Shown: positions 38,335-41,293 of the stretch, one piece after another | Layout of the letters: each line of letters begins with the position of its first letter | Position numbering within the stretch: the stretch's first letter is position 1 | Assembly: GCA_903903635.1 (NCBI GenBank) | Contig: CAIUZK010000142.1 | Location: 11,037-75,036, forward strand | Reading direction: 5' to 3' | Length of the DNA: 64,000 nucleotides | Source: an uncultured Bacteroidota bacterium | GTDB taxonomy: Bacteria; Bacteroidota; Bacteroidia; Chitinophagales; Chitinophagaceae | Notes under the pieces: model-generated | Database searches by the model: none | What the model saw: only the letters and a program-made list of their open reading frames with translations | What the model was told of the DNA's origin: nothing | Program-made: the position numbers and the translations under genes

Positions 38335-38379
38335 ATAGATAAAGTATATTTACTTAAGCTAATACCTGAAAAATGAAGC
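38335..38379 (+). repeat. 45-bp leader repeat of the GldM-like paralogs (copies at 40584-40628 and, partially, 39155-39194)
   Basis: ATAGATAAAGTATATTTACTTA(AG/CA)CTAATACCTGAAAAATGAAGC; 43/45 identical between copies 1 and 3; contains a TATATTTA -7-like box. Confidence 0.9.
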
Positions 38380-39107
38380 AATGTATTTGGTTATTGTCGT
38401 TACTTGTTATTGCCAATGTTAGTTATTGCCAGGTAGTCGCTATTCAGAAAACTTTGGATAATGAGTTATATGTGTGTGTACAAAATCCTTTAAATGTTGC
38501 TGTTGAAAAGTGTGCATCAAAAAAAATACGGTTAATAACCAATAATGGTAGAGTTCAAGGAGAAAAGGGCCATTGGGTTATTTGCCCTGAACACACAGGA
38601 AATACTGTTATTTATGTATACAAAAAAACCGTGTTGGGGTTAAAATTTATTGACAGCCAGTATTTCAGAGCAAAGCAAATACCTCTTTCAAAGGCAACTA
38701 TAAATGGAAGGCCAGATGGAAAAATTACGAAATCATTATTTTGCTCTCAAATTGCACCAGTAGCAGTTGTGTACTGTTGCGGTTTTGACTTTAGATTTAA
38801 AATAGTGAGTTTTACAGTTGTTGTTTATCGTTCGTGCGACAAGGAGATATTCAGAAGAACAATGTCAGATAGTAATGGAACTCGCATTGACTCTGTTACC
38901 CATGAATTCTTCACTACGTTGGAAAACAATGACAAAGTAGTATTTACGGATATCAAAATGGTTTTCTGTTACGATGCACCAAGAGTCGGAGAGCCAATAG
39001 AGTTGTCAATAACGGACGCAGAATATTACAAAAGGCCATCACCTGGTGAGAATGAGACAGTAATTGACCCAATAAATGGTAATGAATATGTAAGGCCAAA
39101 GTGGTAG
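38373..39107 (+). CDS. GldM C-terminal-domain-like exported protein, paralog 1
   Basis: Signal peptide; NELYVCVQNPLNVAV and FRAKQIP...NDKVVFTDI resemble the distal domains of GldM. Confidence 0.7.
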   Translation: MKQCIWLLSLLVIANVSYCQVVAIQKTLDNELYVCVQNPLNVAVEKCASKKIRLITNNGRVQGEKGHWVICPEHTGNTVIYVYKKTVLGLKFIDSQYFRAKQIPLSKATINGRPDGKITKSLFCSQIAPVAVVYCCGFDFRFKIVSFTVVVYRSCDKEIFRRTMSDSNGTRIDSVTHEFFTTLENNDKVVFTDIKMVFCYDAPRVGEPIELSITDAEYYKRPSPGENETVIDPINGNEYVRPKW

Positions 39108-39180
39108 TGCAATATTTTTTATCTGGCCAAGTTTTACAGTTGTCTTGAATAAGTTATTTACTTACACTAATATCTAAAAA

Positions 39181-39933
39181 ATGAAGCGGCTCATTGCGTT
39201 ATTGTTTCTGAATATGGTGATACAAACTGGCAATGGCCAGGTGGTCGCCATTGAAACCCCTAGGGGACATCAATTGTACATGTGCATCGATAATCACTTT
39301 AAAGTAGCTGTCGAAAATACGCCTTCAAAGGACTTAGTTCTGGAAACAGACAATGGTTCAATAGATAGAGAAGAAGATTATCCACCCGGATATTATAAAA
39401 TAAATACAAAAAAAGATGGGAAGGCGGTAATATATGTAGACCGTAAAACACCAAAAGGATTAAAAAGAATAGACAGCCAAATTTTTTGGGTGAAAAAATT
39501 ACCATGTGTGGCAGCTCTAGGAGGTAAACCTGGTGGCCCTTTTTCAAAATCATCGATTTGTGCTCAGATTGCCCCCCAGGTTTATGTTGCAAATTTGAAT
39601 ATTCATCCCGATTTTATAATTGAGCAATTTACTGTTATTGTTCATTGCCCATGTGGACAGGAATTGTTTAAGAGAACATTAAAGAATAATGGAACTTTTG
39701 GGGCACGTATTGATCCTACTACCAACGATTTTTTTACTACACTGGAGAATGGAGACACAGTGTTATTTACAGATTTTAAAATACGGAATTGTGATTTTGG
39801 GCTTGAGCCTCAGTTTTATCAACCTATGGTGTTTACAATTACGGAAGCAGAAAAATACCACAAACCAATCCCAGGAGAAGTATATGAATTAGAAGACCCT
39901 GTTACAGGAAATGTATTTAAGAAAACATACTGA
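39181..39933 (+). CDS. GldM C-terminal-domain-like exported protein, paralog 2
   Basis: Signal peptide; LYMCIDNHFKVAV, FWVKKLP, AQIAP, NGDTVLFTDF; shares a C-terminal tail with paralog 1. Confidence 0.7.
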   Translation: MKRLIALLFLNMVIQTGNGQVVAIETPRGHQLYMCIDNHFKVAVENTPSKDLVLETDNGSIDREEDYPPGYYKINTKKDGKAVIYVDRKTPKGLKRIDSQIFWVKKLPCVAALGGKPGGPFSKSSICAQIAPQVYVANLNIHPDFIIEQFTVIVHCPCGQELFKRTLKNNGTFGARIDPTTNDFFTTLENGDTVLFTDFKIRNCDFGLEPQFYQPMVFTITEAEKYHKPIPGEVYELEDPVTGNVFKKTY

Positions 39934-39952
39934 AAATATATATTCGAAAAAA

Positions 39953-40034
39953 TAAGCTTTTAAGCATAAATAATTTTTGATAAATTAAGCCTATATACTT
40001 AAATTTGTACAGATAATTTAAGTCTTTAAGCTTA
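39953..40034. promoter_or_regulatory. Three TAAG-N8-CTTA-type operator-like palindromes
   Basis: 39953-39968 (TAAG..CATA), 39986-40001 and 40019-40034; overlap a TAAATTTG -7 box and the start codon. Confidence 0.65.
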
Positions 40035-40495
40035 TGAAAGTAAAAAACCATAAACTTGTTGTGCGGCAGTGGGATAGAAAAATAAGCACCGGCACCTTGT
40101 TACATCCTGTAGAATATGCAGAGGGATGGATACACTCATTGCGATTAACGTTGAATATGTCGCTGAGGCAACTTGGCAACAGAATGGGAATCACACCGCA
40201 AAGTGTACGGGATATACAGCGGCGTGAAAAGGAAGGTACCTTAACTATAAAAACATTAAGGGATGCAGCAGAAGCGCTGGATATGAAACTGGTTTATTCT
40301 TTTATTCCTAAAGATGGGACATTGGAACAAATGATAGACCGAAAGGCGAATGAAATGGCTACAAAGATTGTAAAAAGAACATCGACAACCATGCGGCTGG
40401 AAGATCAGGAAAATACTGATGAAAGGATACATGAAGCAATCATGGAATTAACCGAAGACATAAAAAGAAACATGCCAAAAAAACTATGGGACTAG
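40034..40495 (+). CDS. Mobile mystery protein A (XRE HTH regulator)
   Basis: GWIHSLRLTLNMSLRQLGNRMGITPQSVRDIQRREKEGTLT...TTMRLEDQ...KKLWD. Confidence 0.9.
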   Translation: MKVKNHKLVVRQWDRKISTGTLLHPVEYAEGWIHSLRLTLNMSLRQLGNRMGITPQSVRDIQRREKEGTLTIKTLRDAAEALDMKLVYSFIPKDGTLEQMIDRKANEMATKIVKRTSTTMRLEDQENTDERIHEAIMELTEDIKRNMPKKLWD

Positions 40496-40587
40496 CTCTT
40501 ATTTATGATTATGGGCAAACTCCGCTTGATGATGATGAAATTTGCCAGATCATAAGTTCAGTATTCTACTATTCTAATAAGCCATAG
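40486..40587 (+). pseudogene. Truncated mobile mystery protein B (Fic family); N-terminal stub only
   Basis: MGLALIYDYGQTPLDDDE overlaps the 3' end of A as in intact pairs; similarity ends near 40539 and a stop follows at 40585-40587. Confidence 0.8.
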
Positions 40588-40621
40588 ATAAAGTATATTT
40601 ACTTACACTAATACCTGAAAA

Positions 40622-41293
40622 ATGAAGCGGCTCATCTGTTTATTGGTTTTTTGCTTGTTTTGGCAAACTGGATTTTGCCAGGGAGGCTGTGCTATTCAGC
40701 TAGATAAAATGAATATCCTTATTTCGGGTATTGACAATCCCATAACCGTCGCAGTATATGATACAAAAGAATCGTCAATATTTTTGACTACTAATAATGG
40801 TAAAATTACAGGAACAGGAGGGCACTGTACAATCAGGCCCGATAGTACAGGTGAGGCAGTAGTAGAAGTTTGGAAAAAGACAACTAAAGGATCACATAAA
40901 GTCGGAGAATCAAAGTTCAGAGTGAGGCGATATCCTGATCCTGTGCTAACATTACAATATAAAACAGGAGGTAAATTGGATGCTGCACTTGCACGTGCCC
41001 AGATTGCACCCGCTGCGAGATGGACTGAATATTATGGAATATGTGCACAGGCTAAAATAACAGGCTTTGCGCTTATAATTTTAAGAGACAATAAATTATT
41101 TTTCATGGGCAGTGCTCATAATTCAAATTCAGTAATATTTAGTGACAATAAAGATGTTGCTCAGGCTATGGAATCACTCATCCCTGGGGATATATTGCTT
41201 TTTTCAGAAATAACCGCTAGGGTGACAGATGGTAAAGAACGCCATTTGCAACCTGCTGAGTTTCTGATAACCGACAAGGACGAAAAAGAATGA
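40622..41293 (+). CDS. GldM C-terminal-domain-like exported protein, paralog 3
   Basis: Signal peptide; LDKMNILISGIDNPITVAV, FRVRRYPDP, PGDILLFSEITARVTDGKERHL, the clearest GldM resemblance of the three. Confidence 0.8.
   Translation: MKRLICLLVFCLFWQTGFCQGGCAIQLDKMNILISGIDNPITVAVYDTKESSIFLTTNNGKITGTGGHCTIRPDSTGEAVVEVWKKTTKGSHKVGESKFRVRRYPDPVLTLQYKTGGKLDAALARAQIAPAARWTEYYGICAQAKITGFALIILRDNKLFFMGSAHNSNSVIFSDNKDVAQAMESLIPGDILLFSEITARVTDGKERHLQPAEFLITDKDEKE

Follow-up and report, generated by a model that had tools for sequence, protein, structure and literature searches.

What are three tandem genes that resemble only the tip of a motor protein doing at a locus from which the rest of the motor is missing? 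The question is raised by a 64,000-nt stretch of DNA from an uncultured Bacteroidota bacterium of the family Chitinophagaceae (GenBank assembly GCA_903903635.1, contig CAIUZK010000142.1, positions 11,037 to 75,036 of the forward strand), hereafter the window, in which an earlier note based on the letters alone had described three exported paralogs of 223-250 amino acids (aa) with signal peptides. The three genes were recovered where they had been placed, all on the forward strand and with intact reading frames on translation. Gene A (38373-39107) encodes 244 aa, laid out approximately as a signal peptide (1-19), a D3 domain (21-103), a D4 domain (105-215) and a tail (216-244); gene B (39181-39933) encodes 250 aa with the same signal peptide, D3 and D4 architecture and a tail that carries DPVTGN; and gene C (40622-41293) encodes 223 aa with a signal peptide (1-19), D3 and D4 and no tail. 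D3 and D4 are the distal domains of GldM/PorM, the periplasm-spanning rotor of the proton-driven GldLM/PorLM motor of the T9SS (type IX secretion system) and of gliding. The products of A, B and C are almost certainly exported, stand-alone D3-D4 modules of GldM; from the sequences, each gene is predicted to have its own promoter and each product to pass through Sec and stay soluble in the periplasm. The explanation that we prefer as a whole, and towards which the evidence leans somewhat, is that they are exported accessory cassettes which bind the partners of the rotor tip.

The likeness to GldM is limited to its distal domains, as the earlier note had proposed, and domain models, a profile search of known structures and structure comparison agree on this. 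Pfam GldM_3rd (PF21602, cut-off 25.2 bits) was matched by A with 32 and by C with 42.1 bits, B staying below the cut-off at 18.9 bits; GldM_4th (PF12080) returned sub-threshold scores of 19.5 (A) and 16.4 bits, and neither GldM_1st nor GldM_2nd had a match in A-C. TIGR03517 scored 59.6 (A), 19.7 (B) and 63.9 bits (C), all below its cut-off of 180 bits and in alignments confined to positions 323-517 (A 323-505; C 326-517), and the motor GldMs of the same genome scored 308.6 and 288.6 bits. With alignments starting at 323-326 and the first two domains unmatched, the proposed absence of the transmembrane (TM) anchor and the proximal domains is borne out. A-C matched the profile of their own family with E-values of 1e-68 to 1e-79 (B 8e-70), far beyond chance, and the 99-member family profile, when compared with the PDB, retrieved PorM (6EY5, 6EY6, 7CMG) at an E-value of 2.6e-28 and GldM (6EY4) at 5e-21, with profile positions 22-213, that is, the whole mature protein, aligned to PorM 327-524. 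AlphaFold2 modelled A and C with mean confidence (pLDDT) of 90.7 and 89.6, and Foldseek placed PorM 315-516 at the top of the PDB for both models over about 200 columns (A, E-value 2e-11 and TM-score by target 0.75; C, 4e-14 and 0.73). A generic immunoglobulin (Ig)-like fold was ruled out, the unrelated Ig proteins that followed PorM/GldM having E-values of about 1e-4 and TM-scores of 0.26-0.28.

Compared with GldM/PorM, D3 and D4 of A-C are homologous in both sequence and fold, a periplasmic location is shared, and the common structural motifs include YxGxxNP, FRV(K/R)xxPxP, GG and the D3-D4 junction. The differences are that A-C carry a cleavable signal peptide in place of the TM helix, D1 and D2; that they lie outside any gldKLMN operon and, since both the membrane anchor and the contact with GldL are missing, would transmit no torque; that their D4 is less basic and has not kept LENFDF and GPDGxxR; and that A and B add an inter-domain Cys pair and a C-terminal β-hairpin. 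Among themselves the proteins are 42% (A/B) and 31% (A/C) identical. Of the motifs that the earlier note had listed as shared, F(R/W)x(K/R)xxP, QIAP and D-x-x-(V/L)-F are indeed common to all three, and Y-x-x-(V/I)-x-N-(P/H) is matched exactly by A and B but only in part by C, which reads ISGIDNP. The Cys-rich pair with a common DP(I/V)xGN tail is A and B, in which the tail reads DPINGN, as a turn, and DPVTGN; C has no such tail, and the mature parts contain eight, six and three Cys residues in A, B and C, respectively, as counted by eye from the translations. C is the most GldM-like of the three and keeps DKMN, NP and DG..R. No gldK, gldL or gldN was found in the window, again in line with the earlier description, and the neighbours of A-C, an mqnC-like radical S-adenosylmethionine gene on one side and scoA on the other, include no T9SS gene; in the assembly (5.27 Mb, 275 contigs, with the window on contig C142), two gldK-L-M-N operons, both complete, lie on C174 and C26.

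All three N-termini consist of MK, 11-14 hydrophobic residues and (A/G/C)|Q, and Gln-20 is conserved in 96% of 138 family members. Substrates of signal peptidase I in Bacteroidota follow a "Q-rule" with Gln at +1 (PMC5837995), and since the short hydrophobic region and Gln-20 fit this rule, A-C are predicted to be exported and soluble instead of anchored. A membrane anchor was ruled out for A, B and C, their hydrophobic region being too short for a TM helix, so that neither of the two outcomes that the earlier note had named as fatal to its proposal, this and an Ig-like fold, was encountered. Lipoproteins were likewise ruled out: throughout the family the position before Gln-20 is occupied by A, G or C, so that a Cys there is not a lipobox Cys, although lipoboxes are present in a few distant family members. 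The proteins do not look like T9SS cargo either, as none of the families of C-terminal domain (CTD) signals (TIGR04183/TIGR04131 type) was matched by A-C in the Pfam and NCBIfam scans, and the tail of A and B is modelled as a hairpin of 29 residues, against the 80-residue CTD of T9SS cargo.

A-C belong to a large family. When 1.84 billion representative proteins were searched, 3416 matched, and the best 150 of these, nearly all of 178-265 aa and with the same signal peptide, fall into about 140 clusters at 50% identity. In a tree of the D3-D4 region, A, B and C fall among 53 short proteins that are separated from all 16 motor GldMs by a branch with a Shimodaira-Hasegawa-like approximate likelihood ratio (SH-aLRT) support of 94. 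This separation indicates that the main short clade is old and did not come from a recent truncation, and it rules out A-C as recent truncations of the gldM of their own genome. A tandem short pair of one Flavobacteriaceae-type genome nests among the motor GldMs (SH-aLRT 97), so that short forms arose more than once. A and B group with P0007, which also bears the tail, and C lies in a subclade (SH-aLRT 99) with L014_8001 (identical to P0009), P0019 and P0002; like the clade at large (205-260 aa), A-C have a signal peptide with Gln at +1 and D3 and D4 only, and variants elsewhere in the family have the architectures D3-D3-D4 and D3-D4-D4. The family is widespread across the class. Of 251 genomes of the phylum at least 90% complete, 53 have a GldM-type (D3-D4) match and 198 do not; short forms occurred in at least about 9 of the former, a lower bound because scoring covered 12 candidates per genome, and in none of the latter. 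In the samples examined, the clade occurs only in GldM-bearing Bacteroidota. Within the genus short forms are common and often in tandem, and the overall distribution is patchy. Annotations from the Joint Genome Institute (JGI) read "GldM-like protein" or "hypothetical", cluster look-ups give almost no names, and in the literature searched no paper on natural short GldM proteins was found, "truncated GldM" there referring to laboratory constructs. Built from known domains, these proteins represent a novel architecture, one that is widespread and undescribed in the literature searched.

The biochemistry of PorM provides a framework for what such modules could do. PorM D4 alone binds PorN, binding of PorK needs D2-D3 together with D4, and in the dimer strand β7 is exchanged between the D3 domains (PMC5790014); the cargo CTDs of five effectors are each bound by D2-D3 and by D4 as well (bioRxiv 10.1101/483123). 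In the mechanism that we propose, the signal peptide would be cleaved before Gln-20 and the protein would fold as a rigid D3-D4 rod, which would bind the ligands of the rotor tip, either the GldN-type cogs of the GldK/N ring or the CTD signals of T9SS cargo or both, and so act as a binder, whether adaptor, escort, competitor or sensor. Backed also by the occurrence of the family in GldM-bearing genomes only, in the samples examined, and by the BlaR1 fusions and the nearby GldN cores described below, this binding of T9SS partners is, taken alone, a tentative proposal that falls somewhat short of an even chance.

In A and B, the rods would be stapled by an inter-domain disulfide. Cys residues at profile columns 35 and 199, both present in A and B, occur jointly in 30 members (phi 0.92), and on the tree the two switch state together no fewer than eight times; column 35 lies in the loop after the first D3 strands and column 199 at the site of the invariant GPDG of motor GldMs. 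The D3-D4 junction of GldM is compact and rigid (PMC5790014), and from this and the covariation of the two Cys residues we infer that they form a disulfide staple. A second Cys pair, at columns 49 and 67, lies within D3. The tail of the DPxTG type is present in 33 of 138 family members and appears in the model of A as a β-hairpin at the C-terminal end (pLDDT 80-91). A and B would hence present a modified tip, probably with a shifted partner specificity.

Several observations weigh against the proposal that these proteins bind the partners of the rotor tip. The tip of PorM has been proposed to slot between acidic PorN cogs through its positive charge (PMC12365241), and the D4 of motor GldMs has a mean net charge of +3.2 and an isoelectric point of 9.05 (n=16), compared with -0.26 and 7.0 for short proteins (n=62) and with +1 in A, -2 in B and 0 in C. 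DKMNV, LENFDFxAxF and GPDGxxR, near-invariant in a set of 112 motor GldMs that is biased towards relatives of one query, are variable in the short family; A and B have lost all three, and in C DKMN and DG..R survive. To these changes A and B add the C-terminal hairpin. No conserved gene neighbour and no linkage to gldKLMN emerged from 15 family loci, and five genomes outside the genus that have a short GldM have no short GldN. Moreover, the low G+C content at third codon positions (GC3), the rapid turnover and the adjacent remnants of toxin and mobile genes would also fit a conflict function unrelated to the T9SS. Given the charge, the motifs and the hairpin, strict mimicry of the rotor tip by A and B is doubtful and a changed specificity is favoured, and C may be the better candidate for a mimic.

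One more specific form of the proposal, which we regard as unlikely when stated by itself, places the function on the cargo side: soluble D3-D4 proteins might be escorts or holdases that recognise the CTD and either hand the cargo to the T9SS or sequester it. The binding of five effector CTDs by PorM domains speaks for it, several quickly diverging paralogs per genome would match a diverse cargo, and a natural fusion puts the module where a periplasmic ligand-sensing domain usually sits. The fusion is found in BlaR1/M56 proteases (P0136 and P0168; locus L069:3662-5674, a JGI metagenome contig) whose periplasmic C-terminal domain is a GldM D3-D4, encoded directly after a BlaI (Penicillinase_R) gene. 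By analogy with BlaR1, the fused module would be the sensor domain, and this BlaI/BlaR1-GldM couple is possibly a signalling pair that senses a T9SS-related periplasmic cue; the analogy also suggests that D3-D4 can serve as a periplasmic recognition domain. A-C and the fusions alike employ the module in the periplasm away from the motor, but in the fusions it is membrane-tethered as part of a signalling protease whereas A-C are free, and it was recruited recently, as its identity of about 50% to genuine GldM indicates, whereas A-C come from a much older clade. Against a cargo-side function, cargo genes are not consistently adjacent, the array of the window lying between mqnC and scoA, and the CTD binding comes from P. 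gingivalis PorM only, by two-hybrid and co-immunoprecipitation experiments in a preprint.

The function might equally be sought on the ring side, and with no better prospects: the rods would dock between the GldN cogs, or heterodimerise with the D3 of GldM through exchange of β7, and work as a brake or decoupler, the rotor-tip mimic of the earlier note. That D4 suffices for binding PorN and that D3 swaps β7 are in favour of this, as are the greater number of GldM-invariant motifs kept by C and the presence of stand-alone GldN cores near some loci of the genus. Such cores (PF19841 only, about 215-230 aa) are, as an observation in its own right, strongly expanded in the genus, with several per genome, and some of the proteins fuse two to four cores. 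They are the counterpart of A-C for the binding partner of GldM and resemble them in being small exported proteins with the core fold of one T9SS ring subunit only, and differ in belonging to another fold and family and in being absent from the window; the genome of the window has one elsewhere (C54:3258-3785), with an open frame of 227 aa. Four genus genomes have short GldM genes within 0.1-4.4 kb of stand-alone GldN cores, at three independent loci, the loci of genomes G008 and G022 being orthologous; about 0.3 such loci would be expected by chance according to a rough, back-of-envelope estimate. In these two genomes the GldN core is head-to-head with a tandem short GldM pair (G008:C82:13363-13911, or L020:7343-7996, and G022:C12:24972-25514). 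This proximity hints at a retained relationship of tip and cog. An obligatory pairing with short GldN was ruled out by the five non-genus genomes that lack it, and the same absence counts against a ring-side role, together with the loss of the basic D4, LENFDF and GPDGxxR and the tip hairpin added in A and B; several constitutively promoted inhibitors per cell would also be hard to account for.

How the genes came to the locus bears on a reading that does without the T9SS. The closest relative found, a metagenome-assembled genome (MAG) from Umeå (locus L014), has AlaS, DnaN and MqnC proteins 94-95% identical to those of the window and is collinear with it in DNA across mqnC and the intergenic stretch, as far as the ATG of A. 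At the 5' element of C the two become collinear again, and the orthologue of C (68% DNA and 57% protein identity) is the MAG's first gene. The 5' element, of 62 nt and making up the direct-repeat family D1, precedes each of the three genes on the forward strand: copy 1 before A (38335-38396), copy 2, more diverged, before B (39143-39204) and copy 3 before C (40584-40645). Copy 1 consists of a Bacteroidota -7-like box (TATATTTA), a leader that by eye measures some 20 nt, the ATG and the opening eight codons of A. Copies 1 and 3 are 85% identical, compared with 31% for the proteins of A and C, and the genome holds only these three copies; the element also precedes the C orthologue of the Umeå MAG. 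An RNA element in the conserved leader was looked for, with no Rfam match and no stable fold.

Because the collinearity with the MAG stops at the ATG of A and resumes at the element of C, the segment 38378-40583 is an insertion between two copies of the 62-nt element, and C is, from this comparison, the resident gene of the locus. Besides A and B, the inserted segment encodes a mobile mystery protein A with a helix-turn-helix motif, not a relative of GldM (40034-40495, forward; TIGR02612, 134.7 bits over a cut-off of 122.6), and a 31-codon open reading frame (LALIYDYGQTPLDDDE...; 40492-40587, forward), which may be the remnant start of the partner gene, mobile mystery protein B, and whose stop, at about 40585-40587, falls where copy 3 starts (40584). 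The mobile mystery gene and the remnant would represent a decayed mobile module that came with A and B. Since the 62-nt element bounds the inserted block, it looks like a recombination anchor for cassette gain. A candidate inverted repeat flanking the array (I2, 38239-38263/41360-41384, 80% complementary) was rejected, being of the same quality as eight chance-level pairs.

Other loci and substitution rates point to similar dynamics. In G008 and G022, a 1.65-kb block with a tandem short pair (L020:7870-9520 compared with L021) is 97-99% identical between flanks that are 81-91% identical, with dS values of 0.03-0.08 against 0.36-1.05 in the flanks and a dN/dS ratio (ω) of 0.25-0.38; as the dS of the block is ten times below that of its flanks, the block indicates a recent exchange of a cassette between species. 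C and its MAG orthologue have a dS of 1.41, within the 1.17-1.46 of the flanking genes, and a dN of 0.32 against 0.03-0.04 (ω of 0.23 against 0.03), so that the amino acids of C have changed about ten times faster than those of its flanks. GldM-like genes stand beside mqnC in 3 of the 22 genus genomes with mqnC, and no conserved array context was found across these 22 mqnC loci. The genes are kept by purifying selection overall (ω 0.23-0.38) while evolving fast and moving by recombination, and A, B and C behave as accessory, exchangeable cassettes. The diversifying family of the earlier note is upheld in part, by the tenfold dN, the gain and exchange of cassettes and the isolation of each protein in sequence databases, although selection is purifying overall.

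These dynamics lend some weight to a reuse of the module in conflict, unrelated to the T9SS, in which the proteins would be periplasmic immunity factors or decoys against toxins, bacteriocins or phage proteins, a reading that we consider quite improbable and less so only than decay. A-C have a GC3 of 0.29-0.31, against 0.51-0.57 for mqnC, dnaN and scoA, and when about 15 billion proteins are clustered at 90% identity each of them stands alone, where the cluster of the neighbouring DnaN has nine members; A and B were inserted with the mobile mystery module, the G008/G022 cassette was exchanged, and an ADP-ribosyltransferase cassette lies 1.7 kb away. On the other hand, A-C have no PADLOC or PHROG match, phage and plasmid collections gave no match, none of the 15 loci has a cognate toxin gene alongside, and the family was seen only in genomes that bear GldM. 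Finally, that A-C are decaying fragments of a gldM duplicate without function, as their truncation relative to GldM, their atypical composition and the decayed mobile module beside them might suggest, is effectively refuted by intact frames, added signal peptides, conserved promoters of their own, an old separate clade, a dN/dS of 0.23-0.38, maintained Cys pairs and confident AlphaFold2 models.

To return to the proposal of exported cassettes that bind the partners of the rotor tip, the way in which the GldM tip couples to cargo and to the GldK/N ring is the main mechanical problem of the T9SS and of gliding, and the present picture of it rests on low-confidence complex predictions and two-hybrid data. 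The family offers hundreds of natural soluble, stable versions of this tip, some with a putative disulfide lock. Should they bind the ring or the CTD, they could serve as they are to probe or inhibit the interface and might be a layer of regulation so far missing; otherwise, D3-D4 would have found another use, as a periplasmic binding domain of a general kind, at which the BlaR1 fusions hint. In either case the locus illustrates clearly, on a small scale, the gain of cassettes at a conserved promoter and leader element. A more far-reaching idea, which we offer as a speculation with little expectation, is that stand-alone tips serve the T9SS and gliding as a layer of regulators or adaptors that has escaped notice, plugging the GldN cogs or capturing CTD cargo, that they are swapped because this interface is in conflict (for example, with phages or competitors exploiting T9SS-exported surface proteins), and that together with stand-alone GldN cores they make up soluble tip/cog pairs.

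Related modules occur elsewhere in the same genome. At C175:4565-5734 there is a membrane-anchored GldM paralog of 389 aa with D1, D2 and D3 and no D4, ending in a double stop and with no gldL adjacent, which is the structural complement of the soluble D3-D4 proteins; similar D4-less frames recur in other genomes of the genus. A divergent short GldM-like exported protein of 228 aa is encoded at C236:42467-43153, of a type that is single-copy in most genus genomes, and a further divergent short form, of 223 aa, lies on the minus strand of C172 (about 14.3-15.0 kb), directly downstream of a gene for an extracytoplasmic function (ECF) sigma factor and upstream of a gene for a large β-helix protein.

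The surroundings of the array have also been rearranged. In the Umeå MAG dnaN directly abuts mqnC, and the window has here a second insertion (35172-37097), which encodes an exported protein of 232 aa and the ADP-ribosyltransferase-like cassette (a weak PADLOC match to PD-T4-9_A, E-value 0.001). On the other side, synteny with 21 other genus genomes stops right after C (41294-41476 rightwards) and scoA adjoins the locus only in the genome of the window, which places a rearrangement breakpoint here.

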